Source: Asterionella formosa
Taxonomy: Eukaryota
Reading direction: 5' to 3'
Assembly (NCBI GenBank): GCA_002256025.1
Contig: NKIB01013557.1
Location: 1-55,625 of the forward strand
DNA: 55,625 nucleotides
A program made the translations under genes and the position numbers. Positions 4,232 through 39,500 of the stretch are shown here, in pieces. The stretch's first letter is position 1, and every line of letters begins with the position of its first letter. The notes below the pieces were generated by a model that worked only from the letters and a program-made list of their open reading frames with translations, made no database searches and was not told where the DNA came from.

Positions 4232-5113
4232 TCAGGAGACCCCCTTGCATGTTGTGCATCTTCTGACTTGCTGAGCTGCTTGAAGATCACAGTCGACATT
4301 CAGTTTGGCCTGCCAAGGTAATAAGTCATATGGGCAGTCGTCGTCTTGATGGGCCTTGACGTGATGCGGTACCAAATTAATCTGTAACTCATCTGCTAGT
4401 TTCATTGTTGCTTGAATAAGGTCGTAGTCGGTGAGAAGCGTACTGGAGGGGCCGCCATGTCTCCACTGATTTATCCGGGAGATAAGCGCAGAGTTATCCA
4501 TGTTAACATCAAGGGTAATTTGTGACAAGCAAATCGAAGTGGGGTCAAGTTGTAAAATATGTGAGATGGCTGCCATGCCGCCTAAAAGTCCCCCCATCTC
4601 GGGTCGTAGTGAGGACATATCTTGGCCCCCGCTGCTTGTGACCCACCCATGCCCATAAGCCTGTGTTTTTGATTGGCGATCATATAACTTCCAACCATGC
4701 GAGGCACTCTCCGGGTTGGCAATTAAGGAGCCATCAGAGGCCAAGACTACATGGCCAGAAACTTGGTTTTCCCTGAAGAGAGCCAGGTCCCTGGGAAGAA
4801 CAAAGTCCCCCATCGCCTGTTCCAGGAAAGGTTTGGAAGTGTTTGAGGAGTGTTGAGTTTGTGATAGCAGCCCTTGTTTTAATCCACAATACTGTCCAAA
4901 GGTTCGAGGAAATCCGCCTGTCCGGGGATGTCCTGTTATCTCATAAAACTTGGTGGAAGTTTTATGAAGTGAAACTGGAATTAAGTGCTGAGGTCGTGTA
5001 AAAGTCACATTATATGTACGAGAGTAAACTCGTGCTGAGTGGCATTGTTGATGAACCAAAAAGATACCTTCCTCTTTTTGTTGAGGGATTAAATCCATAG
5101 TTGTCCCATCCAA
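4232..5113 (-). pseudogene. LINE ORF2 RNase H domain
   Basis: Motifs LASDGS, SSLRPEMGG, MDNSALI, DYDLI, HVKAHQD and LNVDCD give the D-E-D-H-D set of RNase HI. Confidence 0.9.
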
Positions 5114-5488
5114 ATGGAACCTCCATTTTTGATGCTTACAGGCTTGGGTTAGCCAAAAGTCGCCAACGGTTTTCGAAGTTTATACGTTGCGTTTGATGTA
5201 CATAAGCATCTTAAAAGCATCTTCTTCCATAGCCTCCATGCTAAGGGGGAAGGGCGATCCTGCTTAGTTCATTCCAACGTGCTAGTTCTATCAGGACAAC
5301 GCCGTCCCTGGAGATAGTCCACAATGATCTTGGTGCCAGGTAGAGCCATCTGTTAGGTCTGATACAGTTATTACCTGTTGGAACAAGCGACATGCATTCA
5401 GTCGCTTTAACTCTTTGGGCTGCAGATTTAGATGTTTACAGTGGAAAATGTCCATAATGCACTTGCCTTTTGTCTGTTGTGGTTGTAG

Positions 5489-8217
5489 TTACCAGGCATC
5501 CTCTATGTGGATTGTTGCCTTTATGTGGTTGGTGAAATTCCACAAGGATGTCAGCCAATTTGGTTCAATATATTTCAGGGGATAATCTATATTGCTGGAA
5601 AGGAAAGGTTTTCCGGAAACACCCATCTGAAGTTGCACTTTTTCAAGTAGGATGTGCATGTGCATGAGCTGAGCAAGCTCGTTGTCATGACGGAGTTGCC
5701 CCAAGAACATTTGAAGATGTGCGATACCTTGGTCGGTATATGTGTCAGTGAAACCAAAATCACCCAGGTTTGGCGGGCCGTAGAACAGAAGTCGTTTAGT
5801 AATTTTGTTAAAGCCCATGCGCGTTAACAGAGTGGGCATATAAGATCTGTCTATTTGTGGACACTGTTGAAAGGTGAAGGTTGAGGAGCACAGAAGGTAT
5901 TTCATTGCTGGTTGGAGCATTGTTTGGTAGGCAACGAGAATCTCGTGACACTGTAGTCGTGACACTGTAGTTTAGATGCAGAGATATTACAACTCATGGT
6001 CCTCCCACACTGGACTAATTTCTTGTATTCATCTTGGTTATTGCCCTCCGGAGATAGCATTGCGCCAAGGTTACGGGGACCATCTTTAGCGTCTTTTTGA
6101 GGAATTTTTGTTAGAGCACTATAAACATTCCCAGATGTTAGGTTAATTTCGACATTTGTTTCATCTTTGCTCGTTAATGAATATTCATCATTATAAATAT
6201 TCCAATCCAGAGCCATAAAAAAGCACTTTTCTAATGCCAAAGCTCCCCCTGTGGTGTATAACAACTGTTCCCAGAACTGTGCTATATCCTCCATTTCCGC
6301 TGCTAGGTGATATAATGTTTTATTGTCAATGGCAAGGATGATCTCAGTGTCATCCACATAAGTTTCTGCTGCCCGTGATTGGCTTCTTGTTCTTCTGGGA
6401 TTGCTGAAAGACAAACCTGGAGACCTTCTCGAAATTGCTCCTAATAACACACATTTAATTGCTAGCCATAGGCTTGGAGATGCCCCCGACCCCTGTAATG
6501 TGCCAAGGACCCAGTCCTGAACATTGGAGAAGGAATCTTCAGAAATCCCAAGAGCTGTCCTCACCCTGTATTTCATGGGCTCAAGAGTACTAAGGAGTGC
6601 TTTGACAGAGTATTCACTGGCACCCAGGCGTCTCAATGCTATAGCGCCAACTGAGGGAAACCAGCAAATATTCAAACGAATAAAGAATGCAGTTTGACAA
6701 TTACCAAAGTAAGACGCAAATCAATAACAGATTAGTATAGTTTCAATTATATGTCTCATAATCATTGGGCATTGTCTGCAAAAGCGCACTAGCCTGTCTA
6801 ACATCCACCAAACAGCAGCAAGACGAGAAGACCCTCATCATTCAGATATACCTGACTGTGGAATGAACACATCGCCCAAAAACCCTTATTATGCCAAAAG
6901 AAGAATCGCTACACCGCAGCATGACTCGCCATCAACCAACTGCCAAAAGAGACCCAACCACATCCGCTTGGACCCAATCCGGCAGCAAGTTACAAATCGA
7001 ATCGTCAATACAAAAATGAAGGGGGGGACCCGGAAACCCATCAGATACTTGAATACCACAGCCTCACCATCACACGTACGTCAAACATTTGAATACCCAA
7101 TGACACTGCACCCCTGGCACCAGGGAGCAAGGGCACATGAGAAATGCATAATTCTCACACCAACTGATGAAATCATCCGGTCAAAAGCAGCTTTCCCATC
7201 ATTGCTAAAAATTATCGCAACCTTCTTGCATATCCGGATCCCATCGTATGTCAGCCTTTTCATTGTAATTGCATCCAAAGAAGATCGGTTGGGTCTTGAT
7301 CCCCGTTGTAAGGGTAAATTTGTTTTCCGGTCCTCTGCCCGATGTATGAGTCGGCGGCCAAAGACTGTTCTTAATACCATGTTTAAGTCAGCCTCTATTA
7401 GCTGAATAACCCTCAGCTTGTCCAATCTGGGGGTCCCCACTACCTTCTCGAGCATCACCTGTAATGCATTGGTCCACCTTTCCAACGTGAAACCATACTC
7501 AAAAGTAAGGGACATCACAGTCGAGTATACAAAGCTAAGGGAATTGGATGTCAAAGCAGCGCGATAGTGTCCTAAGTGTTGCCCACTTGGTGCGGAAGAT
7601 GTTTTCTCCGACGCCTTACAAAAGCCTGATTTATAGTCTTCAAGTGAAATCGCCGCTGAGACTGTATCTGTTCTATTCTCCTGTTGGGGGTATGCCATTT
7701 CCTTTACAGATGTCAGGATTGCCTCATTAAAGGCGAAGTCTGATAGGTCAACCTTGCCAGTTAGAATTGAGTCAGAGAAATGGTTAAATTGAAATGGATG
7801 CACCTGACTTCCAAAAGGTCCCTCAACGAACAGGGTAGTGCTTTCTTGTGCAAAATGACGTATATTACGTTGAAGTATCTGGCTAAACATTTCACTGGAT
7901 TCTGTGATGGTTTGAAATGATGTGATTTCTCCAGTCTCATCATATATAGGTTTCTCAATTCTATTCAGACTTGTGCGGATCTCTCCTTTTACATAACTCC
8001 TCAGTCTTGGCCATAACTTTGTCTTATATTCAGCGGATAGGATAGCCCAAAGCTTTTCTGCTTTAGGTTTATTCCCCTGGAGCATCTCTGCCTCAACCCG
8101 TTTGTCCGGATATTGCTTTCGAAGGACTCTTGAATTATCTTGAACTAAGTTTAATTTGAACCATGCATCCTCGAGTTTATTACGTAGAAAAGTAGTATTG
8201 GGGTTGATAGTTGTCAT
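5489..8217 (-). pseudogene. LINE ORF2 reverse transcriptase, interrupted by a 0.5 kb insertion
   Basis: Motifs SGQHLGHY, MLEKVVGTPRLDKLRVIQLIEADLN, NDGKAAFDRM, GTLQGSGASPSLW, TYVDD and LYTTGGALALEKC. The domain is split over ORFs 7081-8217, 5902-6675 and 5489-5965. Confidence 0.95.
6660..7157. mobile_element. Secondary insertion inside the LINE RT
   Basis: The RT motif FDRMI-PSVG-AIALRRLG is split. The flanks carry an imperfect direct repeat, CGCCAACTGAGGGAA (6645-6659) and CACCAACTGATGAAA (7158-7172). Confidence 0.7.
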
Positions 8218-9430
8218 GCCATACAGCTGCCTTTTTTTAGTGGAATATTACTTGTCAGATTGTGTCCTGCTTTATGACATCGCAAACAATCTCTCCAAAA
8301 GGTAACTTCTCTTCCTGCTGATGCTAGCTCAGGGGACCAGCCATATCCGAAGTTTTTGCGGGAGACTTTCTTTTCTGCATTTAAGACAGCATGAGTAATT
8401 TGGTAGTCAATTCTGTCAGCCTCTTGTTTGAATAATTTAACTTCCATAGTTGGTGCTGATTCCCTCAATTTCATACATTTTTCATAAATGTTGTGTTCTG
8501 TAAAGTGGCTGTGAACTATTTCCAGGTATGCTTTTGTTTGTTCTTTATTCTTGGTCCTCAGGGCCCGATTTTTCCGTGCTGTTGGGTCAGAAGAACCTTT
8601 GTCCACGACAAAAACATCTGTCTCTTTTATGTCAATGAATAACCCTCTGTTATCCGAGAATTTCAGTCCATCGTCGTAAGTGGTGAGTCCACCTTTGGTT
8701 ACTGATGACGAGATTTTCATTGATCCCAAAATGTAGTCTATTTTTCGGTTCCCCCTATTGCATGTCGGAGGTGTTTGGATTGAGTGTAAGTCTTCGTGAA
8801 GATCCAGTAGCTGTGTAGATTCCATGAAAGTGGTAAACTCTTCATCTTCGTAGTCGGAATTTGCATCCATCATAAGAATGACCTCATCCCCCTTTTCTTG
8901 GAACCCTTGTATTTGTCGATGTATATCTATCCATAATTGATGTCTTGGATTACAGTTACCATCCGACATTGGCTTGAGTTTCCTCCATTGCTGCATATAT
9001 GTTGTCTCCATCCCAAGGCCCTGGTGTGTTTTATGACTCACTTGGTAGGCAGTGAGAATTGCTAAATTGAAATCATCATTAGCTTTAAAACGCATCCATG
9101 CCCATCTCCCCAGTTCCTGGTCTGATCCTTGTTCCAGCAATCTAGAAAATAGACGAGATGTGCAGGTCATGCTTACGCCTCCACGTTGCAAAATCGCCTC
9201 ATACCCTTGGTTGCAAGATGTACGAGAGAAACTCATCTCTGTATGTCCTCTGGTCATTTTGGCTTCCCACTTGTCTCGAAAGGTATAGTTTCTCCAATTG
9301 ACGTTGGTTTCACACATCCCAGTTAAGTGACCTCTCAGCCGCATGTTGTTGCTTTGGATCTCTGCGTGTACATGGTCATAAGTCGTGATACCATTGACAT
9401 TTTGAAACACTAAGCGAATGTCGTCTTCAT
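8214..9430 (-). pseudogene. LINE ORF2 apurinic/apyrimidinic-like endonuclease domain
   Basis: Motifs FQNVNG, GMCETNVNW, LGRWAW, ILMMDAN, KIDYILG and SDNRGLFID (SDH motif with H changed to N). Confidence 0.93.
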
Positions 9431-9706
9431 GTAAGTCTTCTGGTGTGTCTCCCCGTGCCGCTAAACCTGCGGCAGATACATGCGTTCCTTCCCTTTTGCT
9501 AGGGCTGTCGTTCTGCCCACCTCCTCTGGCAGTGGCCTCCTGTTGGTGTCGTGCACAATTTTTGTTTTGGTTCCTATTGCAGTTGATTGTGTTTGAGGTT
9601 TATGATCTGTTGTTTATGTTGGTATTTATGCTTTGTTGAGATAATTGACAATCCCTTGAAGAGGAGGGGCAACCCATGGGATCTTTGCTAATTAAATGTA
9701 AGGGAC

Positions 9707-12959: not shown

Positions 12960-13419
12960 TGCAATGGTGTTATCTGTTTAACTACAAATTTCGGAAGAAC
13001 AAATCCCCATCTGAGTCTCACAATCGAAATTGAAGCAATCGTATTTTTATGCATATGATCACTGTCATCATTGCATGCAAGAACATCGAGTTCCTGGAAT
13101 ACATAATGAAACTATGTATTGCGGTAGTGCATCGAATCATTCAAGGAAAGAAGGTAATGTCAGTGTAACTGCAGTATTTAGGGAGAGAAGACAAGAAGAG
13201 AGATTATGAGTCCTCTCCTTGAATCAAGTGGCCATAATCATCCATTTAATGACGACAGTGATGATTCAGTTTATAATAATATTCAGTCACAACAAGATGA
13301 ACAATTGAGACTAAAAACTCTCCAAGGATTGAATGCAGAAGCCATGCAATATTCAGATTTTCAAGATCACACTGGCTTTCTCCCTGAAAATGCAATGGAA
13401 ATGCCCCTTCCCCTTCCAG
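12960..13419 (+). pseudogene. N-terminal fragment of a Plavaka-like transposase, truncated by a copia fragment
   Basis: NFGRT...CHHCMQEHRVPGIHNETMYCG...MQYSDFQDHTGFLPENAMEMPLP is homologous to ORF 19292-19804 and near-identical (inverted) to 39075-39500. Confidence 0.75.
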
Positions 13420-15363
13420 TCTTTCCTTTTGAACTGAATAAGCGGCCCCTGGTTGAACAGACAAAGTGATCCACTGAAACTTGCTGTCCTGGCAACAAAT
13501 GGTCTTTTTTCAAAATTCCGGCTCAGTCCTTAACAACTGAAGTGGTTTTTCCTGGTGCAGTCCTCCGCGTTTGTTTTCCAAATTGACATGCAGCGCACTT
13601 TGGAAGGTTGTTGAGGTTACAAGCTGAAGTATGTAGACGTCGAGTCCCTTCTGTTTTACTCAACACTCCAGATCTCATCAGAAACTGTATCTTGCAAAAG
13701 TTTAGATGAATAAGTCTCTGATGCCACCGCAATAGCTCCTTTTCTTGCTCACTTAAGTTCACGTTTTGCAATGGAAGTTTTTGAAACGGTCGCTGTTAGA
13801 GCTCCTGGAACTGCCATGGTGTCCTTGTGTCGGTACGCTGTAGTTGTAGGAAGGTTATTCATAGGGTTTACTCTTGCAATGATTGCACCTCGTGTTATAT
13901 CTCCCGGCACTCCACTCAAAGTCATCTGATGTGCTTCAATCTGAATGCTTTCATCAGTTTAGGTCTGAAGAAGACTAGCTAGTGGTTCTCAGCAAACGTA
14001 CTTGGCTTTGGGGAATATAGTATGCAGGAACCTTGATGAGACGAGGTTGCCAGCAGTGTCATGCATGGACCAAAGAACATTTCCTTGTCCCTCAATGCGG
14101 AGTCCCTTAGCAATTCCTTGAAGGCGAGTGAGAACACCAGGGACTTTGAATGGACCAACAAAGTCATTTTTGTCAGGGGAAAGAGAGATACTTGCTCCAT
14201 AATCCCTGATAACAGAGAGTGTTGCACATCTCTTCATGGCGTTTCGAAACTTTGTTGGTGCTTGCAAGACCATTTGCAACGTAACAATATTTGCTGCAGC
14301 ATTTCTTGAGGATTAATTGACTTCCATGAGCTCAAAATTGTTAAAGAGAGTGGAAGTCTTGGTTGCTTCCTTGGATTGTTTGCAAGCAAGATTAGACTTG
14401 GTCACGCCATGATGACCTTCAGGCCCTGGTGGTCGATGTCTGCTGGAGACGCCTTCGTGCTTATTAGGACTCATGTTCATCTTTTTATGCTTCTTGGAGG
14501 CCATATCATGCTCTCCCTCTCGAGCAGAGACTGGAGCAGGATAACAAGATTTGAGAGAATGAAACCTGCTGAGGTGGGCAACTTCTAGGTCCAGGGACAC
14601 GATACGGTCACGAAGAGCATCAATTTGAGTGGCTAGGTCTCGTTCATAAACAGTGGGGGCACGGAGAAGGTATTGGCCCATTGAGCGCAAAGAAATTGGG
14701 TGACGTCGATGAACCTTATGATAGATTTGGCTTGAGTGCTGTCTGTTGGTGCTGTGATTTTTCTTGTCAAAGTGATTGCAATGTCGTTGCATCAAGCGTC
14801 GTTGCCATCGAGGTGTGCGGTGAAAGTTGGGATCTGGGTAAGGTTTCAACCAATGAGGGGCAACAAGAATCATGATCCATAACAAGGCTGGTGCAAATAA
14901 GGCCCACTGGTAGGTCACTAGAAAGGTTGAAACGATGGGGATCAAGTGAACCAGCTGCGAAAGGCAAAGTAGAGTGGTCATCATTGTCACAAGATATGGT
15001 CCAAAAAGCAGACAGAGATCAAAGATAGTGATCAAGTCCCAACCACCAAAGGAAGCATGCAAAGCAGATGGATCAGGAACCAGGAAGAAAGTTGCTTCTG
15101 CAGAAGTCTGCTGCTGGGGATGGTCAGATCTTGTTCCACCACCATGGTGGTGTTCAGTAGTTATTTTTTGGTTGTCCACCTTTTTCATTTCGCACACCAA
15201 TGAAAAGTCTTGCCATTGGCTTGCTTTGTGATAGGAGCACCAGGTACAGGTGGAATTCCTTTCCAAGAGGAGTTGGATGTGCCACCAACACTTCCACTTC
15301 CACCACGAATGGCACCATGACCACCACTGTTTCCGCGTCCACCACTTTTCTTATCACGACCAG
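13420..15363 (-). mobile_element. Ty1/copia (CoDi-like) fragment: gag C-terminus, protease, GAG-pre-integrase and start of integrase
   Basis: Motifs KTFHWCAK; IRDYGASISLSP (degenerate D-S-G-A-S); KELLRWHQRLIHLNF...CAACQFGKQ (HHCC); LLPGQQVSVDHF. Frameshifted and truncated at 13420. Confidence 0.92.
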
Positions 15364-17435
15364 CATCTGCAAATAGAAGGTATCGCACATATAAGATCAG
15401 GGGTATTGTACGATAACTGGCACAGAATTTTTCGGTGCATGATACGCGTTTTGTTATTTGTGTTACAGGTACATACTTTATATATGAATATTTGATAAGC
15501 ATGTTTATACTTATAATATTTGATCATATTGTTCTAATATTGATCCATATTGACTCATAATGGTAACCACAAAGTAATCATACAAATACAGTAAATAAGT
15601 GACAACAACTCAAATCGAAATCACTACTTCTCTTTGAATTTCAATCGCTTTTCTCATGACCATGAATTACTAATTGTACTTACAAGACCATCATCGATTT
15701 ACCTTAGCTACATCTTCTATTGTGTATTTATTCATCTTATAGCCATATTATGACCATCATAACTCTATGAAGTATTTGTCCAAAATATGTGGAAACAGAT
15801 TGTAATTTAACTAATAAATTTAGAACTTTTTCAATCTATCTATATAAACAGTTATCTCACACCATCTCACTCCTGTTCATTCTCTTGTCTGCTTCTTCCC
15901 TGCTGCCCCGTTTCTGACACAACTGTAACTGCCCACTTTGTCCTTTCCCTTGTACTTGTCTGATTCCGAAGGATGAACTGATGTCGCTGATAGCGGCGGG
16001 TTGCCTCTCCTCATTCCCTTCTTCTCCATATCAGAGCTTTCCTTCATTATTAGTATTCATGTTAATGTTGTAACAACTGTGAAGCAGATACATGTTAGTC
16101 ATATTATTTTTATGCAACAACATGCAGTTCCATTCTATTTTCACTTACCATGAATAGATGTATTATGTCACACAGGTTTTCACAATGTGTCCAATTATCC
16201 ATTTTCAATTGTTCACTGTATTAACTAATGGGAAGGAATTGTGTGTTAGGCTTGTCTTGTCTAGCTTTTAATACAACAGGCAGTTCCAATCATGATGATA
16301 TGGTTATTTACCGCAACAATGATACAATTCCATGTTCAGTTCTTTCCATATTCCTCAATAAATTGTGAAGACATTGATGTTCAGAACTTCCCTATACTCT
16401 TTGTATACAATTACCCTGATAGATATAAAAGGATGTGTTACTTATGTTCTAACGGGTGATTCTTGTGAGCATTGATCCAATGACAGCAACTCACCGCAAC
16501 CGTCATTTCTTCACATTTAATTTGTCCCCAAAAGTATGCATATACAGGTAAGCAAACAAACACTTGAAGAGAATGCACGCATTGAGTTACTGTTAACCCA
16601 ACAATTGAATATTCTGACATATTCATGTACACACGAGTCCTAATATAATTGAGCCAACCATATACTTCTATGTTTGAATATTTCAAACACCCGTGTACGG
16701 GTACTGTTGTACACATAGATCTGAATATCATCAATGTTGTGTGATTTCATTTGTTTTGAATTTAGTCTGTAAAAATTTCAGTAAGTGATATTAGAATATG
16801 TACAATGCTGTATGAGTTCATTATTTACCACAACCTAATATAAAGTATAAATATAGGTTGTACGACAATCCGGTATGGAGTAATGGTTAATGATATAATT
16901 AAGCCCCATCATGGATGTGACATGTACGTAAAAAAGGGTAAGGGTTAGAATGCGAAGTATGAATACGAACATCGGTTGTACAAAATTTGGCGTAAAATGA
17001 TCTTACGATTAGTTGTTTATGATCTTAATTCTAGTGTTTGTGTTATCGTGGTGTACAGTAATACATTTTAAAACATGCATTTTTGTAAATAGGGCCCTAC
17101 TTCATCTACATCTATCATGTTCACAAGTAAGGACTGCTAGGAGTACGTAGTAACAAGGTACTGGTTGTTATGAACAACTGTTCACATCTTGTTGAAGGCC
17201 ATGATATGATGTACGTATCTGTAGGTATGATTTTTTTCACTTGTGGACATATATATATATAGAGGAACACCTTTATACCGGTATCCCATAAGTGTGAAAG
17301 TAGCTCCCGGTATGGTATTTGTCCATCGCAACGGTACTTGTAAGAGCATTTATATACGATCTCTCATTTCCCTTTTTTTAAGCGACACTTCATCATATGC
17401 TTCTTGTTATTTCTCACCACACCTGTTATACAATC

Positions 17436-17843
17436 ATGCCTCCAAAACCTGTGACTACAAAAACAGTGCAAGATGCGGCAGTTGCAAGGAGAGTGCTGGA
17501 TTTGGCTCAAACAAAGCGAATGATAGCTGATTTTGGAACCTTTCCTACCAGTTATTTTAATAAAAGGCAAAAGCAGTATTCTGTTCATGACGCCTTTGGT
17601 GGTGCCACACCATCCACTCCGTGCATTCCAACAAACATAAATCCTCCTTTTACTACTGATACTACAAAGGCTCGTTTCAATCCTTCTATTCCTGTAAATT
17701 CTGTCTTGAATTCTGCCAGTGAGAATGAAGATGATGATTCACTCGATTCCGGTTCAAGAAAGGCTTCTGCTATTGAGACCACCCATAATATTCACCACCC
17801 TACGTTTGTTTTGAAAAGCTTTGCAATCGAAGTGATCAGGTGA
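17436..17843 (+). CDS. Orphan ORF (135 aa, MPPKPVTTK...), possibly a first exon or a truncated cargo gene
   Basis: The ATG is in a CAATCATG context and the composition is protein-like. It is convergent with the transposase inside the 9 kb element. No recognisable domain. Confidence 0.4.
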   Translation: MPPKPVTTKTVQDAAVARRVLDLAQTKRMIADFGTFPTSYFNKRQKQYSVHDAFGGATPSTPCIPTNINPPFTTDTTKARFNPSIPVNSVLNSASENEDDDSLDSGSRKASAIETTHNIHHPTFVLKSFAIEVIR

Positions 17844-17881
17844 AGTATGACAAACTCAAATGATTCGTATGTCAGTACTTG

Positions 17882-19804
17882 TTATGGTGACATTCTTTTT
17901 CTGGCCCGTTTTCTCGAACGTGGTTCTTGGTCAGGATCAGTCACGTCTACTGGAGGTAAACCCATCTCGTTTGCGTCAGAGTAGGTGTTTGGTACTTCTA
18001 GACAACTCCTTTTCTTAAAAAAGGATTCCCAATCTTTAGGAATAGGTCGATAATTATATAATGATTCCAAAATTTACTTCAATAGGCCAAGTAACAGTTG
18101 ATTGAGGTGTTGCACCAACTACTCCTTCTGGATCACCGTCAAAGTAATGTGTCATCAATGCCGGGATGATTGGATTATGGGAAATGACGTGGCACCACTC
18201 ATTTTGTGTTGCGAACTTACTATTAGTCTGAGTCACACCAAAACATGTTGGTATAGATGGCAATTTTCCAACTGGATAAGTTTCTTTATCCAAATATTGC
18301 TTCAGAAATTTATATGCATCACCAACTTCTCGCAGTTTACATTCTATATCCGGATTGTCAGCGTCTTCTGCATGTACGGTGCAATCTCGGCAAACATGTT
18401 GTCGATATAATCCATTACCTCCACAGAAACCGCAAATTTTATTATGTTCCTCCGTATCTCCAACTACCATTCCAATTTGGAAATAAACTTTTGTACACCC
18501 AGACCATGCACCCAAATATCATAGAATTTGTTTGGATCTTGAAAAGTTTCTAATAAAAATCCAGTAACAGCATGATATAACTTCAGTCGAGAAAGAGAAC
18601 TTCAGTCGAGAAAGAGAGATGTCATTACCTGACTTCTTAGTGGTGTCCATTTGTTTCTCCAAGTCACTAACTTCAATATCTGGTAATAATGACACGAGTT
18701 GCCAAGCATCAACTTTCTTCCTTCCTTCCTTCCAACGTTAAGTTTAAGATTGTTAGTAAGAATGGATATTCTGAGTGCTTCATTTCTTTATCAATAGGTG
18801 AACCGTCACTAAAGACAGTCAATGCCACAAACAAATGCCCAGGCTTTAAAACTCCGTTTTCCGTAGCTTTTGAATTGTTGAATGCATTTTCAAACCGAGT
18901 AGCAGAGGTAACTTCGTCATATATTCGTTTTCTGCAGTTTGTAGGCTTTCTTTGTGGATAACATACAAAATGTTCAATGATGTCAGGATCACGTAACAAT
19001 GATGACATGAGTTGTACTGGTTCAAAGTAATGTTATGTCCGTTGGAATAGAGAGTATTCCATTATTCTCAAGAATAATTACTTTTTTCAACAGTTCACGA
19101 CCTGTTAACCTTGGCGGAAATGAATCATCAATTTTTTTTCAAAGTTTGATAGGAAGGAGCTTGATTCTTTCCATGACATTATTTCATTCTCTGTGCTTTG
19201 AATAACCATTTCATAAGATGATCGAAGTTCATTGGTGGTAGATAGTTCTCGTTTGGGAATAACATGAGTTCTAATTCAATTGGATGCATTTTTAGTAAAT
19301 GTTTTTTGGGAGTTGAAATTGAACAGGTCGAGGAATTTTCATAGATTCCTTGGGAATGAACCCACTTCGATCTTGGTACTCAGGATAATGCATAGTATCA
19401 TTATCCAACCCAATAATTTCTGATAATTCTGTTTCCTCTCCACCTTGCCTTGATGTATTTGAAGTCAAAGAGATACTTTCGTCATAGAATGAAAATAAGA
19501 AATTCTGGTAATCCAATTGTGAAAGAGATTCTTCCGTCATAGTATGCAAACTATCAAAAATAAGAACGTTGGGAAATGAGGAAGAGACACCTGACTTTCC
19601 TGTTTCATTTAAATCACTTGATAGTTTACCGCCACAATTCATAGTTTGGTTGCAAATTCCCGAAATGCGGTGTTCTTCCAAGCAGTGATGGCACAAACCA
19701 AAATCATAAATTTTCGATTGTGAAAGAGGGAGATTTGTTCTTCCGAAATTTAGAGTTGCATACCGAGCACCAGTTAAAGGTTCATGATGCCATTGTTTGG
19801 GCAA
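17882..19804 (-). pseudogene. Plavaka-like (CACTA/EnSpm-related) DDE transposase, frameshifted and probably missing its C-terminus
   Basis: Motifs SLLRDP; IYDEVTSATRF; VALTVFSDGSPID...YPFLLTILNL...R; LKLYH; MVVGDTEEHNKICG...CRDC...ADNP. This matches the Plavaka pattern (first Asp in hxhFSD, YPhxhTIxN, second Asp followed by xxE and CxxC). Confidence 0.8.
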
Positions 19805-20029
19805 AAATGCAAAATCAAAATAGAGTAGAGGGATTGATTTGTGGGCAGCGGTATGAATAGAAATGAATATAACGAAATGTCCAAGTATCGCTTTTTTGTC
19901 AATAAATACCGAGTACCGGTATTTACGTGTATATTCAATAATGTGTCATGCAGTACAAAGTACAAAGCACTGCAACCTTATTATGCATCACTAACCTTTA
20001 AAATTTTTGCTTTTCTTTAATCTGCAATG

Positions 20030-22004
20030 CGTTGTCAAATGCATTGACAAAGAGAGCACATTTCTCATTGATAGCAACATCACTGGAGAGTCCAGATGAT
20101 ACTGACTCCCAATTGAAGGGGGAAATTTCAACCACGGTGACGGTAGACGACAACTTCCTTTTCATTCAAGAAATTGCTAGGGTTTTTTTCCAAATGTTTC
20201 ATTCAACATTTTCAAGTCCATAAAACAATTCTGCACAACTTTCTTTATGCAGAAGGCAACTACAGCTTTTTCCATTTGCACCTTCTCCTTCTTGGTAAGA
20301 ACCACGGTTCCAAGGCCAAACAAATTATCCATCTTCTTGACATGAGGTACTTTCGACGGAAAGCAAACATGATCAGATGATTCTACCATGCCGCCCAACT
20401 GCTTCCAAAGAATTTGGTTTCACCATTTCTTTCAAATTGGAGTAGAATTCCTAAAAATTTCACAACAGTGAATGGTCCACAGGACCATCCAGAATCACCT
20501 TTTGGCTGGTATAATAGTGAGTCATGAGAAGTTGCCATAAAAACTTGCAATGGAGCTTTTTTAGAATGATAGAAACTCTCACTCTGAATGACCTGTTGTG
20601 GCTTATAAGCATGGATCGGAAGGTAGGCATCCCATGATGCTATTTCTTTTTCCCTTTTACATCCAGGGATGATGCAATATTTACGGGCAAGGTGAAACAC
20701 TTGATCGAGATGTTCTTGGACTGTGGCTGCTTCTGCTGGATCGCGGATTTGACGAATCCCTTCGTTGAGATCAAATATGTAATGAACAAAATGATTATTT
20801 CCACAAGATGATCTCTTGCAGTACACTATAATCACAAAGGTACACTCAATATACAACGGGTGACAATTGCCACTATAAGTGTCTCCACCACAATCCATTT
20901 GTGGATTGTCATCAACATCCACAATAACACTCACATTGGATGGATGGAGTTCATGAGTTATGAATTGAATGAGATTTTGAATTGTTTGAAAATCCCAATA
21001 TGCAAGAGATTTAAACGCCTCATAAGTACAGACTTCTTGGGGAATTCGAGAATAAAGTTCTTCCCATCGTTCGAATTGTGGCTTCGTTTTGGTAATGTTC
21101 ACGTACATGAAGGTTCGAATAGGAGGCATGAGTTGACATAATTGACATGCATTTTCCTCTATATATGAACTGCCCTCGGGATTCTCCATGATGGAATTAT
21201 TGACAGAATCTTTTTCAGCTTCATATGATTCAATAAAAATAACATTTCGATCATCCCGGTCATTGGGCATAACGAATTGGGAAAGGTCCAACATAGTCTG
21301 GCTGATTATGGTATTTTTGTTCTTCAACAACTTGATCTCTTGTACAATATCCTGAACTGAAGTTTGATTTTCGAAAACAGGTTGATCTTCAGTGGTAGCA
21401 TGAACAAAGATTCCTTTATTGTCAGCTGGATTTTTCTCTTCATGACCAATCTTTGACAAATTATTATTGTTTATAATCTTTTCATTACTTGAAATTGTTG
21501 TTTTTCTTGGAAGGACAACAGAATCTATCAGACCAGCACCTAAGTCATCATCATCTCCATCCATCAGGTAATCGGGGGTAGGGTTGTCGACATTTTCTGT
21601 TTTAGAATGCTTAGCCTCTAATTGTAGAGATACCCTTGTCTCGTCACGGGACGTATCATGCATTATCATGAGAGATCGACTGGCTTCTTCTCGATTTGGT
21701 GAACAATCAATAAGAATAGCCCGCTGCTTTTCATTGGAAAAATGGTTCAAATGTTTTGAATTTCCCTCATAAGAGGACCTCTCTGATAAATTCATTGGGG
21801 CAACTATGGAATTAACATATGAAATCTTTTTTCTGGAGAATTGTAAACCTTCTCGAAATCATCAGATTTGGAAGGAAACAGACATGTGCTCTCAACCGAT
21901 ATAATGAGTCGTTTCAATTTCTTCTTCGATGTTAAAACGTCTTCGAGTGTAAACCCAACTAGACTATCCTCTTTGTCTTTCCGAATGTTCTTGTTGTTTT
22001 CCAT
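20030..22004 (-). pseudogene. Ulp1/C48 (clan CE)-like cysteine protease
   Basis: ORF 20383-21795 has NNHFVHYIFD (His), IRQIRDP (Asp) and YQPKGDSGWSCGPF (oxyanion Gln and Cys) in clan-CE order after a long acidic, disordered N-terminus. It is joined by frameshifts to ORFs 21804-22070 and 20177-20398. Confidence 0.7.
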
Positions 22005-22463
22005 GATATCAACTTTGATTGGTATTGATATGATGAGTGATGCAGTATGGTTACGCGAAATGATAAACAAGAATGCAATGAAGCCAACGGAGTTCGATTA
22101 CTATCAATGATGTGATGGGAAGGCAACAGCAGCAGCCACAGCAGCAGTATAATTGCATTTGCATGTACGGATGGTACCACGCATGGTACATCAGTACAAG
22201 CTATTCTATATTGGTATTTACGGCTATGGCATTACATTTATCAAATCATATATTTTGATGTTATGATAGAGATGATAAAAACATCTTATTATTGTAAAAT
22301 TATTTAGTAATATATATTAGAGATATTAGCAAGAACATTTTATAGTATGTGCATTTATTTGATCTCATAAATGTGATCAAACTATCATAGGTTCAGCTAC
22401 AAGTGATTGTGAGTATGTGATAATAAATGAAAAATAAGTTACCTGTTGTAATCATACAATAAT

Positions 22464-23432
22464 GGGCGCGCTCTAATAATAATAAATTTATTAAATCATG
22501 TGTATTATAACACAAATCGTTGTACCCATAACCCAAAAATTTGTGTTTGTGTTGGCCAAATTTTTTACAGTTATAAATAACAGTGCATTAAATAAAAAGA
22601 TGTTTAGACATGAATGACTATATAGAATTTCCCGGAATATTTCAAGACTTGCTTGCTCATACTCAAAATGGCTTGCTCTTGCCAAAATAGGTATGCATAT
22701 ACATATGCATATCGTTACATATCAATCAACCTCCTCAATAAATCGATCGTCATTGCTTTTAGATTTCGGCCATGTCTTCATCTTCTTCTTGTCAAAGGAG
22801 AGCAGCCAGGGAGGGCTTCCCTTCCTCTCCAAGGCTGCTTGAACGTCGCCGTCACCAGCAACAAGAACAACAAGAACAGACTCAACCAGAAGAAGAGGAG
22901 GAGGACGACGACGAGAATGAAGATGACACTGGTGCTGATGAGTTTGCCAGTGACGCTTGCTGTTGAACAAAGTCCAGAAAGGACTTGATAATGGATGCTG
23001 TAGTGCATGGCGACGGATTTTGCCACTCCTTCTTCTGACCTCATCAACAGTCAAACTTTCCCTGAATGATGGCATCCTATTTTCTGGTGGATAGCACATT
23101 GCTAACAGTAGCAATGTGATCATAATGTCATCATCATCATCATCATCATCAGGAGATGGGATGAAAGTCGACATGGTCAGTGACTGACGATGATGAATAT
23201 ATAGAACTCATGCATATAATGAACAAGAGGCGGCATAGCATACAAGAGGATGCATCGATATGAAAATTGAACTGTTGAAAATTAAAGTTAAAAAATATAT
23301 AATGTCAGAGAAGTAATCTAAAATATCTCTATTATCAGAGGGCAAGGACTATATTATGTAGCAGATCACCAGAATAATTTGTGTTATAATACACACATGA
23401 TATAATAATTTTTTTTTTATCAGAGCGCGCCC
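22464..23432. mobile_element. Non-autonomous PIF/Harbinger-superfamily element, 969 bp, TSD AAT
   Basis: TIRs GGGCGCGCTCTAATAA...TTATCAGAGCGCGCCC with longer imperfect subterminal similarity. AAT is present at 22461-22463 and 23433-23435. Confidence 0.9.
22958..23174 (-). pseudogene. 5' fragment of a Harbinger-type transposase
   Basis: RRRSGKIRRHALQHPLSSPFWTLFNS resembles the N-terminal motif that precedes the HTH of stramenopile/fungal Harbinger transposases. It lies inside Harbinger-type TIRs. Confidence 0.6.
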
Positions 23433-23514
23433 AATATGATATTGATGGTACGATCTCTTTTGAGTGTACAGAACCCTACTTCACATTGTTTGTACGAGAA
23501 TGTATTATAGCATA

Positions 23515-23524
23515 NNNNNNNNNN
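23515..23524. other. Assembly gap (10 N) followed by a poly-C run
   Basis: N characters in the sequence. Confidence 1.
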
Positions 23525-25833
23525 CCCCCCCCCCCGCCCCATCAAGTATACGTACCAATCTCAGCTTGTTTGTACGAGACGTGTTATTGCATACTCAACA
23601 TCACCTACAGGTACCGGTACCAATGTCACCTTGCTTGTTTGTACGAGAAGAACGTGTGATTGTTGCGTACCAGATACCTGGTACCGGGTACCGTTACCGG
23701 TACCACTCCCTCATCTTAACCCTATCCCTGTGATTGACATGATTTAAATTCAAATCAATCGTATACGGTACGCACGCTTTCTTGCAAAAATATCAGTGCA
23801 ACATATATTCGGGACTGGTAACAGGTACCTGGTACCAGTAGGTATCCCAACGATGGACATGATTTAAATTCAAATCAAATGTCTACGTATGTTTTCTTCC
23901 GAAAATATCTGTACAACATTTCGGTTCCTGCTGTACAACAACAATAGATGAAACAAACTCACACAATATATACCAGTACCAGTGCTCACACAGAAGGAGT
24001 CTCGTACATGCATATCCATATATAGCTGAATATGGAAATATGCAAATCTATTCTCTACAATAAGAAGGTACGTATATGTACATATACCCATGTACGACTG
24101 TCCTAGTATTGCAACACGAATGATTCAAATTCAGTTGCTGATGGTTTGCAGCCAGTGATGGTAAAAATAAATACATACATGTATGAATATACATATGCTT
24201 GTAATATTCTCTCAGACGATAATTATAATTAATATTAGATGATAAATCGAATTGATATGATCATATGATCGCCATTATAAGATGCATCACACGAATTAGA
24301 TGTTTTCTATTTGCAGACCACCATGCTGACCACCTTGAGGACAATCCCTGCACCAGTGGCCACTCTTTCCACACTTGTGGCAGTTTACTTTGGTAGGGCC
24401 ACTGGGAGAAGCACTGGACATTTGAGAGGATTGTGTCAAAGTCAAGAACTCTGATTGAGCAACATGAGCACCAAAACTTGCTGGAGGTGCCTTGGAATCG
24501 CGAGCATGCTTGGCAGGTGGCCACTGTTTTTGATCATAGAGCTTGCAATACTGATCTTCAGCTTTTTGACAGATGGCCTTGTAGGTGAGGTTGTTCTTTA
24601 TCATGTTCTTGTCAGAAGCATCTTTCTCCATGCAGCCAATATCCAGTAGGGCTTCATCAACCAAGACTAACAGTCCACGTAAGGGGTAATAAAAGTTCTC
24701 ATCAAAAGAAAGCTTTTTAGCATGTCCGAAGTCAAGTTATGATCATACTGCCCAGTAGTAGTCAATTCCAAAGCATCAGCTCGAAAGTCGACAATAAGTT
24801 TGGCTAGATCTTCACCATCATGATACTTGATGTTCACTTTTAGGTCTTGAAAGCGTTCAATGGAAGTTGAACAAACCGTCTTGATTAACATCAACCAGAC
24901 AACTGGGAAAGGATCAGAGTCTTCAATCTTTTCAGTGATGGTGCGCTTCAACTGATCTGAGAGTGATGTAAGTAGGACTTGACGTGCTGACATGTTGTTG
25001 GCACAGTCATAGGAATCATAGAGCTTCAGTTGTTTTCCACACGTCTTCTTTGCAGAATTCACGGTGAATCTGGAATGCTCCTTAACAACATTCTTCATGC
25101 AGCTGGAATCTGCAGGATCTGGGATGTACTAAGCAATGGAGTCCATTCCTGTGTTCTGAAGGTGAAACCACACATCATGTGCGTTGAAAGGCTGCTGGAT
25201 CACCTTTCCTGTCAAACTTCGTGTTCAAACCACACATACGGAAGTTACAACCTTTCTGAGAGGCTTTAGCATACAATGGGGGCAACTGATTTGGTTATGT
25301 GAAGTCTGGGGACTCTTCATCATCAAGGCCAGACCAATCTGATTTGGGCTTTCCACCAGTCTACTAGGCTGCCCATTCCTTGTCCGTGAGAGGGGCAAGT
25401 CCACCAACCTTGGGAGGCTGTGGCTTAACAACGCTATCAGATGCTGCAGCAGGAATGGTGACTGAGGAGGAGGATGATGGCATGATGAGAGGGGGTCCAG
25501 ATGTTGCAGCAGGGACTGGTGGCAACAAAGGAGTAGGCCTGGGAGGCGGGGTAGTAGGAGGCCCTGTCGGCAATGTAGTTCCTGTTGACATTAAGTGGGT
25601 CACTTCTCAAATGTACTTCTTACAAAGGATGATGCAAAGTCAGCAAACTGATCAGGGATGTTCCTGCTCTTCTCCAGCTCAATCGATGGTATCAATAACT
25701 GTTCTTCTCATTCCTCAAGAATGAAATCAAGTGTGGTAGTACATTGATATGGTTGTGCAGGGTCTGCAGTTGTAAGCTTAGGCAAGCTGTGCTGAGAGCA
25801 GGATGCTCTGTTAAAGAAACCGGAAGTTTCTAA

Positions 25834-29792: not shown

Positions 29793-31000
29793 TCACAAAG
29801 AACCAAAAATGGTCCTTCTCGTTTCGTCCGAAATTATTCTTCTCCACTTTTCAACTGCAGTTCGATATGATTCTGTAAACCTTTTCAAATTGATTCCAGA
29901 AGGGCTCTCATCAGTTACAAAATACTTATTCAACATTTTGTCAATTAATATGAGTCCAGAAATGTGGCCAAGACGTGCATGATTATACCATTTGAAGAGA
30001 GAAACGTTTTCATTCATTTGTTGAATCATGGATTTCACATTGAGATCATCATCCTTCTTGAAAGAAAAATTGCAAGTAAGACGTCCAAATGCTTCGTTCA
30101 AAATTTTCAAATCTAAATAGGAGCTCAAAATTTTGTCGATACAAAATTGAAGAACAGTTATTTCCAACTGAAACATATCCTCACAAGAATTTGTCATTGT
30201 CACTTGAGGCCAAACTGTTCCAAGATGAAAGTATGTTGACTTGGTTGGTGGGTCAGATGTAACAGATAACACATCGTTGTCTGCTCAATCTGTTGCTACG
30301 ACCTCAAGTTCTAAAACTTTCCAGGCCTCCGTCTCCAAACGGAACTGTGCCCGGTTGCCAAGAAATTTGGTTTTGCCATTCCTTTCTAGTTGCAATAGAG
30401 TTTCCAACACTTTCACAATTTTCAATGGTCCACACGACAATCCACTATCATCTTCTGGTTGAAATAAGATGGAATCATGTTCAGTGGCCATAATGATCTG
30501 CAATGGTGCCGTGCTTTGGTGCCAGTATTGAAAGATTCCGATAAACTAATTTCTTCAGGTGTATGGGATTCTTATGGAAGATATCCTGTATCGGTGCATA
30601 ACAATTCCAATTGTTTGGTGCATCCAGGAATGATGCAGTACTTGTGGGCAAGGTGTAATACTTGATCATAATGGTCATCCACACTTGCATCGCTCTTTTC
30701 CTGAATCACAGACTTGACATAATCCATCATTTATAGCAAAAAGATAATGCACAAAATGGTTGTTTTCCTCGCTCCTCATCTGATCTGTTGCAATAAACAA
30801 TTAGCACAGAGTAACTGTCATGATGAAAGGGATGACAATCACCTTGGTATATATACGGTTTGTTATTACCCTTTTCTGGGTTCTCATCCATATCAAATAC
30901 ATCCTTTACATCAGTTGGATGAAGTTCATAAAATATATAATGGATCATAGAGGTAATTGTTTCATGGTCCCAACATGCAAGATCTTTAAAATCTGAAGAT
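29793..31000 (-). pseudogene. Second, diverged Ulp1-like protease copy
   Basis: Motifs LACWDHETI, GDCHP, NNHFVHY, KYCIIPGC, FQPEDDSGLSCGPL, LQLERNGKTKF and LDLKILNEAFG are all matched in the 20030-22004 gene. Multiple frameshifts. Confidence 0.8.
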
Positions 31001-32174
31001 GATTTTTGATACCTTTGACTCTTCTTTTCCGAAAACATCAAGTTGTGTAGTGTAAGTGACGGAAGTAAGTCACGTTTCTTGTTTGACTGATCCTTTCCAT
31101 GAAATCCATGAAATTCTATTTGGAAAGTTGTCAAAGGGCCAGAAGACTTTGATGTAAAACAGTGGAAGGGTAACGTGGAGCTTTTGCGGCGCTTGTGGAG
31201 GTGCAACTGATGTGATGGTACCCGTTTGGAATAATTAAATATGCATGGTCAAAAGGGTTACTATTTAAATTACAAGGGCTTTTGTTAAAATTATTAGATG
31301 ATAAAACAAAAAATTATGATCAGATGATCATAATCACATGATGCATCATGGGAATATGATAGTTTTCATTTGCTGACTTTGTACAGATATTTTTGTAAGT
31401 AAAGATTTGTATGATTTGAATTTAAATCATGTCCATTGTTGGGATACCTACTACCAGTGCTGTATATACTATGTTGCATTGATTTTTTGTATGTAAATGT
31501 TCATACCATATACGATTGAGATTAAACCTGGTGTCTTGTACCCAATAAAATGTACAAAGCCACAACTGATTCTACTTGGAGGGGAGGACAAGACATTGGC
31601 CCTTTTGATCATTCAACATTATGAAAAACCAACTCCACCACTGCCTGAGCCTGTAGCATTCAGCTTGATAATTGCACCTCAAAAAATTAGCAACCTTCAT
31701 CTTCGAATGTTGAAATAGATCTCAGGCCAAGGATATTGTCATGTCATTTGGCATTGCTCGTGTTGGTGTAATTGTTGTTTCATAATGGTGACTGGCCCAA
31801 ACCCCAACCCCAACCTTCAACATTGAAATATCTCATGGTATTGCTTGCCGATCCATTGCAAAGTCCTGTAGACCTCTGAGGAAATCGACATCATTAAAAA
31901 TATATACTATAAGGGAGAGGATGTGAACCTTTTGTAGGCGGAATCAGAGCAACAATTAAATACCAGTAAATTCTATGAAATACCGGTCATTGAACAATTT
32001 TAATTATACCACTGTTATTTGGATGAATGAGGGGCCACGAGGTCCATGCAGCTAGCCATAGCTATAATTTTTTTTAGTCAAAACTATATTTTGTAGCTAT
32101 CTCTATTTTGATAAAATCTGGGCCTGCTCCTGCCACTACCGGTAACTATTTAAAATTGAAATAGTTCGTGGCAA

Positions 32175-35070: not shown

Positions 35071-35122
35071 GAAGAGGTTTGTTGATATTAGAAAAAAAAT
35101 GGGTGCCTACCAGGATTACCAA

Positions 35123-35218
35123 ATTTGGTCAACACAAACACAAATTTTGGGGTTATGGGTACAACGATTTGTGGTATAATACACATGATATAATAATTTT
35201 TATTATCAGAGCGCGCCC
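35123..35218 (-). mobile_element. Solo end of the GGGCGCGCTCT Harbinger-type family
   Basis: Reverse complement of about 22464-22560, ending AGAGCGCGCCC and followed by AGT. No partner end was found. Confidence 0.85.
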
Positions 35219-35594
35219 AGTAACACATTAAAATGTAATGATCCTGGAGCATTTTGATATTGAGCAAGTTTTTGTACAGATGATTGAATATCAAGCCTGG
35301 TCCATCGACATAGATGTTGAAATTGCCCCGACAACGTCCTATATTCAAAACCAATGGCTTTATGAAGTTCACTTGGAGAGTATGGTATACAACTAGCGAG
35401 TGCTTCTTCATATTGTACACCACTGGCTGAGCATAGGAATCATGCTGGTTTGTGAGAGATTTTGCTTCTCCCAGGAAGAACCATAAAAATATTGAAATAT
35501 TTCATGAACCACCATATGAGTTTGGTCAGTTGTCATACAATTGGAACTAAACAGGAATCTGAGAGCAAAAAATGAGAGACTTGCCCCATACTTG

Positions 35595-38204: not shown

Positions 38205-38329
38205 GAGTCACACAAGTACACAACACATCATGTGTCAGACAAACAGATAGATCAGCAGGAAAGACTGGTGAGGATTCATAACAAGAAATCCTGTATCAGA
38301 ATGGTATAACTTGAGTCTTCACAAGGACA

Positions 38330-39500
38330 AGTCATCACCAGATAACTTGCTATTCATTTGTTTCTCCAGATCACTGACTTCAATGTCTGGCAAAAAGGAA
38401 TACCAATTGCCATACATCAACTTTTTTCCTTCCTTCTAACTTTAAGTTTAACATTGTCAACAATAATGGGCAGATGCTCGGAATTTTTTCATTTGTTTAT
38501 CAACAGGTGAACCATCACTGAAAATTGCTAGGGCAACAAATAGACACCCTGTCTTGTCTTCAACACTCCATTTTCTGATGCAGGAGAATTGTTGAACACA
38601 TTTTCAAAGCAAGTCGCGGAAGTTACTTTGTCATATATGAGTTCCCCAAAAGTTGTAAGTTTCACTTGTGGGTGACATACAAAATGTTGAATGATATTGG
38701 AATCGCATTGTGGCAATGCTGCCATCAGCTGTAATGCTGCCATCAGCTGTACTGGTTAGAAATAATGGAGTGTGCGTGGGATGATCATTTTTGAATTTTT
38801 ATCAATCTTTATTTGTTTGGTAAACAGTTGACCACCAGCTAATGATGGTGGAAATGAAACATCCATGCGTTTCTTCACAGCCTGGTAGGATGGAGCCTGA
38901 TTCCTTCAACCAAAATATTTCATTGTTTTGCCTTGAACAGCCATTTCATTAGACGATCAAAGTAAACTGGTGGAAGGTAAGCAATTCTTGTTAAAGAATA
39001 ACATGAGTTCTAATTTGATTGGATGCGCGCATGTTTAGAGAATGTTTACTTGGAAGTTGAAATTGTGGAGGAAGGGGAAGGGGCATTTCCATTGCATTTT
39101 CAGGGAGAAAGCCGGTGTGATCTTGAAAATCTGAATATTGCATGGTTTCTGCATTCAATCCTTGGAAAGGTTTTAGTCTCAATTGTTTGTCTTGTTGTGA
39201 CTGAATATTGTTATAAACTGAATCATCACTGTCGTCATTAAATGGATGATTATGGCCACTTGATCCAAGCTGCAGCAGTTGCTTACACTGCCATTAACTT
39301 CTTTCCTTGAATGACTCGATGCACTACCACAATACATAGTTTCATTATGTATTCCAGGAACTCGATTTCTTGCAAGCAATGTCGTCAGTGACCACATGCA
39401 TAGAAAACACGGTTGCTACAATTTCGATTGTGAGACTCAGATGGGGACTTGTTCTTCCGAAATTTGTAGTTACACAGAAAACAACATTGCAATGCATGTC
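38330..39500 (-). pseudogene. Plavaka-like transposase copy, 5' half, heavily decayed
   Basis: IIQHFVCHPQ...LIYDKVTSATCFENVFNNS and QFQLPSK are homologous to ORFs 18709-19008 and 19292-19804. Confidence 0.8.

Follow-up and report, generated by a model that had tools for sequence, protein, structure and literature searches.

The window analysed here, contig NKIB01013557.1 of the Asterionella formosa assembly GCA_002256025.1, comprises 55,625 nucleotides of the forward strand. It contains an insertion, designated el1, that is bounded by short terminal inverted repeats and flanked by the two halves of a copia-type gag gene. Along the minus strand, el1 is sequentially composed of a probably nested segment of very high copy, a gene for a predicted clan-CE cysteine protease, and a Plavaka-type transposase pseudogene, which a third gene, ORF3, approaches from the opposite direction. 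The features are listed in Table 1. An initial annotation, made from the letters of the sequence, had described a multi-gene element of transposase, protease and convergent open reading frame (ORF). This composition holds, the 491-codon ORF is present, and so is the N gap that the annotation named.

Table 1. Features of el1 and of the interrupted gag gene.
Feature	Position	Strand	Basis or remarks
Whole insertion el1, probably a DNA transposon copy of the Plavaka lineage, decayed and with an internal deletion	15364-24319	(-), the strand of the transposase and protease genes	gag halves on both sides; contig divergence
Left terminal inverted repeat, CATCTGCAAATAGAA	15364-15378	(+)	one mismatch to the family motif CGTCTGCAAATARAA
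Right terminal inverted repeat, inward reading GGTCTGCAAATAGAA	24305-24319	(-)	one mismatch to the family motif CGTCTGCAAATARAA
Upstream half of the copia-type gag with its CCHC zinc knuckle	24320-24736	(-)	ORF, Pfam, P0132 alignment
Downstream half of gag, G/R-rich linker to NGKTFHWC	15185-15363	(-)	ORF, P0132 alignment
Plavaka-type DDE transposase pseudogene, C-terminal ~540 residues deleted	17897-19945	(-)	PF18759; sister-copy comparison
19-bp tandem duplication (two identical copies) in the transposase, frameshifting	18579-18616		garbled stretch and stop relative to P0096
491-codon open frame, protease gene	20383-21858	(-)	N-terminal ~240 residues without recognised domain; predicted clan-CE cysteine protease domain at ~20386-21141
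Out-of-frame remnant of the protease C-terminal tail	20180-20419	(-)	deletion and premature stop relative to the one-frame P0007
ORF3, convergent with the transposase	17436-17860	(+)	frameshift near 17800; cut off at ~17860
Very-high-copy segment of ~1 kb with 61-nt imperfect inverted repeats (79% complementary)	22454-23442		arms 22454-22514 and 23382-23442
Gap of 10 N in the assembly, with a run of C after it	23515-23524		

Both outer junctions of el1 lie within a gag coding sequence. The ORF at 24296-24736 (-) matches PF00098 (zf-CCHC; 22.6 bits, E 1.1e-4), reaches the junction with ...CHKCGKSGHWCRDCPQGGQHGG, and then runs into el1 (LQIENI). The ORF at 15185-15523 (-) exits el1 and continues as GRDKKSGGRGNSGG...NGKTFHWCAK (GRDKKSGGRG...). 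P0132, an 812-residue metagenomic protein of 58% identity, aligns to both halves, with residues 314-440 corresponding to the right half and residues 488-513 to the left half. The flanks thus represent, by this alignment, adjacent parts of one copia-type gag, in line with the initial annotation. The gap between the two aligned blocks measures 47 residues in P0132 and ~38 residues in the window. Further downstream, PF13976 (GAG-pre-integrase, a copia-typical domain) is matched at 13523-13795 (-) with 38.7 bits, so that a gag with a CCHC knuckle is followed by a GAG-pre-integrase domain, as in copia elements. No integrase or reverse transcriptase was found in the window, and this copia copy is frameshifted relative to P0132.

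Each junction is also recovered from independent assemblies. The left junction is contained in 678-nt contigs of two sequencing runs (X1 record 1 and X2 record 9), which cover 14741-15418 with 0 and 2 differences. At the right junction, P0131, 99% identical and from another assembly, reads through into el1. The initial annotation supposed that an intact copia would join at the two junctions; P0132, the only intact relative of the gag, is co-linear with both halves, and its G/R-rich linker is too diverged to place the junction to the base.

With a slash to mark the junction, the sequence across the left boundary of el1 is ...ACGACCAG/CATCTGCAAATAGAA, and that across its right boundary is TTCTATTTGCAGAC/CACCATG; longer readings are ...ACGACCAG/CATCTGCAAATAGAAGG and ...GTTTTCTATTTGCAGAC/CACCATG. 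Each of the two arms comprises 15 nt, and they share a perfect inverted repeat of 13 nt, TCTGCAAATAGAA. A single 13-nt pair separated by 9 kb is unremarkable in itself, given that 43 inverted pairs occur in 12 kb. The 15-nt end motif, in contrast to its expectation of 0.41, is present at seven sites of the 55.6-kb window (1726+, 15364+, 24319-, 29613-, 35595+, 38204- and 52288+), a number reached in 0 of 100 shuffles, and it has no extra copy between 15378 and 24305. Family ends of the CGTCTGC type, proposed earlier as CGTCTG termini, are supported. The proposed terminal formula, C[A/G]TCTG, describes the left arm correctly; the right arm, read inward, begins with GG and not CG.

Logan contigs of four runs were aligned to the window at at least 80% identity. 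The runs with el1 sequence are labelled as algae, freshwater metagenomes or a coded organism. Summed contig depth pools every contig at this identity, whichever organism it comes from, and is no measure of copy number; it amounts in run X1 to 41,728-335,328 inside el1 and to 1,159-1,634 in the flanks, a 30- to 250-fold step up into el1. Contigs depart from the window exactly at 15366 (25 in X1 and 15 in X2) and at 24318 (30 in X1 and 29 in X2). Beyond these loose ends the consensus reaches an agreement of only 0.39-0.45, indicating many different flanks around the family copies. The ends of el1 are those of a multicopy repeat family, and the copy number of the family is high.

Sequence next to the repeats is shared as well. 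A second copy of the left arm extends leftwards from 38204 with 86% identity over ~500 nt, the homology beginning at the repeat. The right end has homologues at 31292-31377, which is diverged, and at the metagenome locus L083. This locus came from a metagenome scan with the 14-nt end motif, which returned at least 118 loci; among the matches listed, extended homology is present in L083 and the rest are chance matches. By their subterminal sequence the ends fall into a left type, found six times in the window, and a right type, found twice there and once more in L083. The left-type ends at 1726, 29613, 35595 and 52288 share ~100 nt of subterminal sequence and form a sister subfamily. When the extra window ends were paired (35595 with 38204 and 1726 with 29613, among others), no matching flanks emerged. 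A separate repeat, ...GAATTATCTATATGCAAATAG..., is found in inverted orientation at 37637 (+) and 2783 (-) with ~20 identical flanking bases; it belongs to an unrelated family and matches the motif by chance.

CG precedes TCTGC at all five other left-type ends of the window and at L083. Three of nine ends (52290, 29611 and L083) carry CATCG as their five outermost bases, as does the loose-end consensus of both X1 and X2, and the right end of L083 is the exact reverse complement of CATCG. The family repeat consequently probably extends outward to CATCG...CGATG. The left end of el1 reads CATCTG, and its right end does not fit this pattern.

The transposase is assigned to the Plavaka lineage by profile comparison. 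PF18759 (Plavaka) matches one el1 fragment, 18709-19032 (-), with 28.2 bits (E 1.4e-6), above the gathering cutoff of 26.3. Sister copies with intact frames, from metagenome contigs, score higher: P0079 reaches 56.8 bits (E 2.8e-15) over positions 49-253 of the 325-position profile, and P0078 and P0080 reach 41.5 and 40.3 bits. No transposase family other than Plavaka was matched in a Pfam search of el1, the window and the sister copies. The profile search thus bears out the Plavaka-like transposase of the initial annotation as to its kind, while the gene itself is broken in el1. Candidate motifs recognised by eye in el1 are FSDGSPID, VVGDTEEH, CGFC, CRDC and HVISH. Searched against PDB sequences, neither the transposase profile (A7) nor P0112, a protein representing the C-terminal part, gave a meaningful match, and the RAG1/Transib kinship of the clade was not visible there. 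P0096, a sister copy, had no match among viral contigs.

Mapping of el1 against P0081, P0094, P0096 and P0109 reveals at least six frameshifts and four in-frame stops in the transposase. The frame changes near 19310, 19138, 19042 and 18725, and the 19-bp duplication is accompanied by a compensating shift. A deletion with a shift near 18105 removes FEV of ATPFEVLHQLLLG, that is, the segment with the putative catalytic Glu; the ATPFEVLHQLLLG segment was located by eye in the relative P0109. Homology to P0112 (595 residues) stops at 17897, and residues 59-595 of this protein have no counterpart in the window, so ~540 C-terminal residues are absent from el1. By its coding content, el1 is a dead, non-autonomous copy that could not move itself. 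P0096 is a different copy and lacks the frameshifts private to el1, yet it has the lesion at 18105. The common lesion implies that defective forms were amplified, probably in trans by autonomous relatives. A further N-terminal fragment of a Plavaka transposase, at 38280-39376 (-), shares ~49-60% identity with family proteins from metagenomes.

The protease gene lies upstream of the transposase on the same strand. A HMMER search over 1.84 billion representatives returned 77 matches to the protein of the 491-codon ORF, mostly short fragments of other copies with 50-92% identity and a few long, distant proteins. With an alignment of these homologues, AlphaFold (AF2) gives a model with a predicted local distance difference test (pLDDT) of 65.7 and a predicted template modelling score (pTM) of 0.60; the single-sequence model has a pLDDT of 35. 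When the model is compared with 48,161 chains by VIA-align, ranks 1-29 are all clan-CE proteases with Z scores of 9.2-4.7, and the next match is unrelated (Z 3.7). The top match is XopD (Z 9.2, root mean square deviation 3.8 over 140 residues), followed by NopD (Z 8.9), DEN1 (Z 8.8), SENP3, SENP5 and SENP7 (Z ~8.3), Ulp1 (Z 7.8), and so on down to HopZ1a (Z 4.7). The Foldseek matches listed to rank 50 are likewise all of the CE clan, and weak (E 2.4e-3 to 8e-2). In the ESM atlas, the best score for the 491-residue protein is 0.85, below the useful range, and a rank-4 cluster with 17% Peptidase_C48 serves as a lead only. The C-terminal ~250 residues are accordingly predicted to fold like a clan-CE protease of the Ulp1/SENP/XopD type.

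The putative catalytic residues His359, Asp373, Gln451 and Cys460 occur in that order. In the model, one strand holds His359, the following strand has Asp373 at its end, Gln451 comes between Asp373 and Cys460, and Cys460 is placed just before a long C-terminal helix. This placement agrees with the arrangement in Ulp1. Among the aligned homologues, the His is kept in 17 of 29, the Asp in 19 of 23, the Gln in 23 of 25, and the Cys in 20 of 28. The additional N-terminal region contains a conserved C-x2-C. The protease may be active; its substrate might be a SUMO- or ubiquitin-like modifier, and one can conjecture an anti-silencing role as a deSUMOylase that benefits the transposon. Two distant metagenome homologues, P0069 (1513 residues) and P0074 (1016 residues), have the protease-like domain at the C terminus; in P0069 both the putative catalytic His and the Cys are replaced. 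They also contain a second, N-terminal His...Asp...Cys-Gly pattern, CE-like by eye and without a Pfam match. The arrangement of the out-of-frame tail remnant recurs at 30081-30230 beside a paralogue of the protease.

The third gene was recognised earlier as a convergent orphan ORF. It is present as an open frame at 17382-17843 (+) and is open in 14 other copies (73-94% identity; consensus start MPPKPVTTK), and it is broken in el1. Longer forms, P0138, P0143 and P0140, run past the end of the el1 homology (...KYDKLKDEHISLQEIHN...). ORF3 matched no Pfam family and nothing in the ESM atlas. Its homology stops only 36 nt from the point at which the transposase homology stops. One deletion, which took away at least 2 kb in all, thus cost ORF3 and the transposase gene their 3' ends.

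The nested segment is probably the most abundant sequence in the stretch. Its contig depth is 798,512-947,310 versus ~56,000-171,000 on either side, ~8 times the depth of the rest of el1, and a further copy of its arm is found at 35121-35222. Loose contig ends fall at 22557 and 23414/23433, positions that do not match those of the arms. The segment is probably a nested insertion resembling a miniature inverted-repeat transposable element (MITE), with approximate boundaries.

A second, diverged subfamily is observed at 30081-31377. It contains a degenerate paralogue of the protease domain (30354-30990) with stops and a frameshift, 39-44% identical in protein. Its right end, 31292-31377, is 76% identical to that of el1, and the protease domain is set a few hundred bases inward of it. 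Numerous protein fragments from metagenomes are nearer to this subfamily (70-86%) than to el1.

Taken together, el1 is likely an old, immobile copy of a multicopy, three-gene family of the Plavaka lineage, inserted in a copia-type gag. A cut-and-paste element of this lineage, which belongs to the EnSpm/CACTA-related 'CMCT' clade, would have inserted into the gag of a Ty1/copia-type element. At the family level, such an element would possess ~15-nt terminal inverted repeats CGTCTGCAAATARAA, a DDE transposase, a co-oriented gene for a clan-CE protease, and the convergent ORF3. The three genes would move as one unit. Decay brought the frameshifts and stops of the transposase, the loss of its catalytic-Glu segment, and one internal deletion through both convergent genes. 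Defective copies probably spread in trans through autonomous relatives.

Several observations weigh against this reading. For the protease, the 491-codon ORF does not match Peptidase_C48 (PF02902) in Pfam at E up to 0.1, nor do 10 homologues at E up to 0.01, and the profile is likewise unmatched by P0113, P0119 and P0007. The profile of the protease domain (A3) has 0 matches to PDB sequences at E up to 10. Since Pfam gives no Peptidase_C48 match, the clan-CE call rests on structure: the protease cargo of the initial annotation stands by its predicted fold and fails at the profile. The pLDDT of 65.7 means a model of moderate confidence, and Gln451 is located in a low-confidence loop. Some distant homologues replace the His by L or I, or the Cys (by S in P0069). 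Eight listed substitutions private to el1 in the protease ORF fall 1, 4 and 3 times on codon positions 1, 2 and 3, with no sign of purifying selection on this copy. As to the element, el1 has no full-length counterpart with all three genes between two ends among the sequences recovered, and co-mobilisation rests on el1 and partial copies. The second protease copy has no recognisable transposase, and its region is a dense repeat nest.

The ends contribute two further points of this kind. At its outer edges el1 departs from the family consensus, with CA on the left and GG on the right when read inward; in view of CG or CATCG at the ends of other copies, these bases are eroded or variant. In addition, neither el1 nor the other window ends display a target-site duplication free of mismatches. 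The duplication of 2-3 bp claimed earlier is not confirmed, as the candidates CAG/CAC and AG/AC carry one mismatch each and boundaries placed 3 nt outward give AC/AT. An empty copia site, with 15363 joined to 24320, was not present among 15 of 156 contig joints. The in-frame junction of the gag halves, also claimed earlier, is arithmetically right, and it is equally obtained 3 nt further out on each side: removal of either 8958 nt or 8964 nt restores the frame, and the frame argument therefore does not fix the ends.

A composite origin, in which the protease gene and perhaps ORF3 came from another transposon that lies within or directly beside a Plavaka remnant, is unlikely. Six left-type and two right-type ends and several transposase fragments lie within 55 kb, a nest of repeats, but both outer junctions of el1 fall in one gag ORF, which requires one insertion, or later insertions into it. 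The MITE-like segment is nested in el1, and the depth varies 8-fold along el1; the end motif, however, is absent from the interior, and left- and right-type ends have the same terminal 13-15 nt. The protease copy at 30354-30990 has no recognisable adjoining transposase. It is nevertheless linked to a right end (31292-31377), and this linkage of protease and right end, repeated in a subfamily as distant as 39-44% protein identity, speaks against a composite.

A misassembly, with two copies of the family joined at the N gap, is very unlikely. The gap of ten N and the adjoining homopolymer are situated in the most repetitive part of el1 and no contig spans the whole stretch, but the contigs of other copies bridge the gap in the same orientation (joints 22146->24134 and 22168->23815), and the flanks on the two outer sides come from neighbouring portions of a single gag, as would not be expected from a mis-join of unrelated loci.

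Hardly credible is a Mutator-like element (MULE) with a 9-bp target-site duplication: a direct repeat of 8 of 9 bases, GACCAGCAT (15358-15366) and GACCACCAT (24316-24324), is present, and ULP domains occur in plant MULEs (PMC2528002), but half of the repeat is flank and half element at each junction, it overlaps the CGTCTGC conserved with different flanks at 1726, 29613, 35595, 38204, 52288 and L083, and Plavaka is the only transposase family detected, with no match to a MULE or MuDR family. Conservation in copies with different flanks assigns these bases to the element ends (CTGCAAAT...ATTTGCA) and not to the target, and the reading as a Mutator-type duplication is rejected. The repeat may reflect chance or a microhomology between target and element ends.

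Two further observations concern the surroundings of el1. An N-terminal fragment of a Plavaka transposase at 12980-13470 (+), 84-91% identical to metagenome proteins of the family, adjoins the truncated end of the copia. Together with the left-type end at 29613 (-), this fragment may indicate that the copia itself is located inside another Plavaka element. At 4232-9599 (-), four long co-oriented open frames of 315, 272, 388 and 461 codons have no Pfam match even at E 10; a YVDD motif in one of them hints at a very divergent retroelement.

The preferred reading, a Plavaka-lineage family with a protease gene, would extend this lineage to another, probably algal, host. A Plavaka family outside fungi and Archaeplastida that has recruited an Ulp1/SENP-fold protease invisible to profiles, kept open in transposase-less derivatives, is conceivable, if doubtful. 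If the protease is retained for the benefit of the element, DNA transposons would here have independently taken up a protease of ubiquitin-like modifiers, a case testable in algae, and a possible benefit would be the removal of SUMO-type marks needed for silencing. The repeated and independent association with Ulp1-type proteases, in plant MULEs, in CACTA and now in Plavaka, points to some function from which transposons profit and which is not known to have been demonstrated. The protease domain also exemplifies a family missed by Pfam and revealed only by structure prediction. In practical terms, the ends, the three genes and the nested MITE can serve genome annotation by allowing a very abundant repeat of this organism to be masked.

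Plavaka elements were first described from fungi and are now grouped with EnSpm/CACTA in the 'CMCT' clade, with duplications of 2-5 bp (PMC12730594). Reports outside fungi cover red algae, where the elements are giant and multi-gene (bioRxiv 10.1101/2025.02.11.637652), as well as chlorophytes and streptophytes (PMC13519894); the novelty is hence smaller than assumed in the initial annotation, which gave Plavaka as described mainly from fungi. ULP domains are carried by plant CACTA and MULE elements (PMC2528002, PMC8978399). A protease cargo of Plavaka was not found in print. The literature searched for Plavaka with Ulp1 contained no paper, and the supplementary data of the cited papers may hold related families. 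A search for Plavaka with protease gave no paper on transposon cargo by title, and a search for Plavaka with diatom gave none of relevance among the matches listed. A paper on Ectocarpus transposons mentions giant EnSpm elements, with no protease cargo in the passages found. An assignment of el1 to CACTA/EnSpm sensu stricto is not supported: the termini are CGTCTGC/CATCG instead of CACTA...TAGTG, and Transposase_21, Transposase_24 and DUF4218 are unmatched.

PlavakaB of Agaricomycotina (PMC12730594) resembles the family in several respects. Both possess a transposase of the Pfam Plavaka family with accessory genes beside it, and the C-x2-C and H-x3-H that follow the second acidic motif of PlavakaB have possible equivalents here, by eye, in CGFC, CRDC and HVISH. 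PlavakaA has the termini TGT..ACA and PlavakaB CATCA..TGATG, with a 2-3 bp duplication reported for the latter (PMC12730594); the probable family-level CATCG...CGATG resembles the PlavakaB termini. The cargo differs, being a TET/JBP dioxygenase in PlavakaB and a predicted CE-clan protease with ORF3 here. The host differs too, an alga-associated freshwater eukaryote instead of a fungus.

The giant Plavaka elements of the red alga Bostrychia (bioRxiv 10.1101/2025.02.11.637652) are likewise multi-gene elements of an alga, present in high copy and mostly as degenerate copies. They measure 17-19 kb and carry PAG1-3 (methylase/SET, ParB/2OG-oxygenase-like), whereas the family described here measures ~9-11 kb and carries the protease and ORF3. 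Domains of the PAG1-3 type were not detected by Pfam in the window or in the ORF3 proteins.

Among plant elements, KI-MULE, Cactavine and the Chenopodium CACTA (PMC2528002, PMC8978399) share with el1 an Ulp1-type domain beside a transposase and the amplification of defective copies. Their ULP domains are matched by Peptidase_C48 and can be traced to host ULP genes, whereas here the likeness is one of fold only. Their transposases are Transposase_21 or MuDR, in contrast to the Plavaka transposase of el1. Compared with the clan-CE proteases Ulp1, SENP, XopD, NopD and DEN1, whose structures are solved, the el1 protein has the same predicted fold, putative His, Asp, Gln and Cys residues in the same order, and a Cys just before a long helix. 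It differs from them in its low sequence identity of 8-15% across the structural alignments, and in the extra N-terminal region with its C-x2-C.

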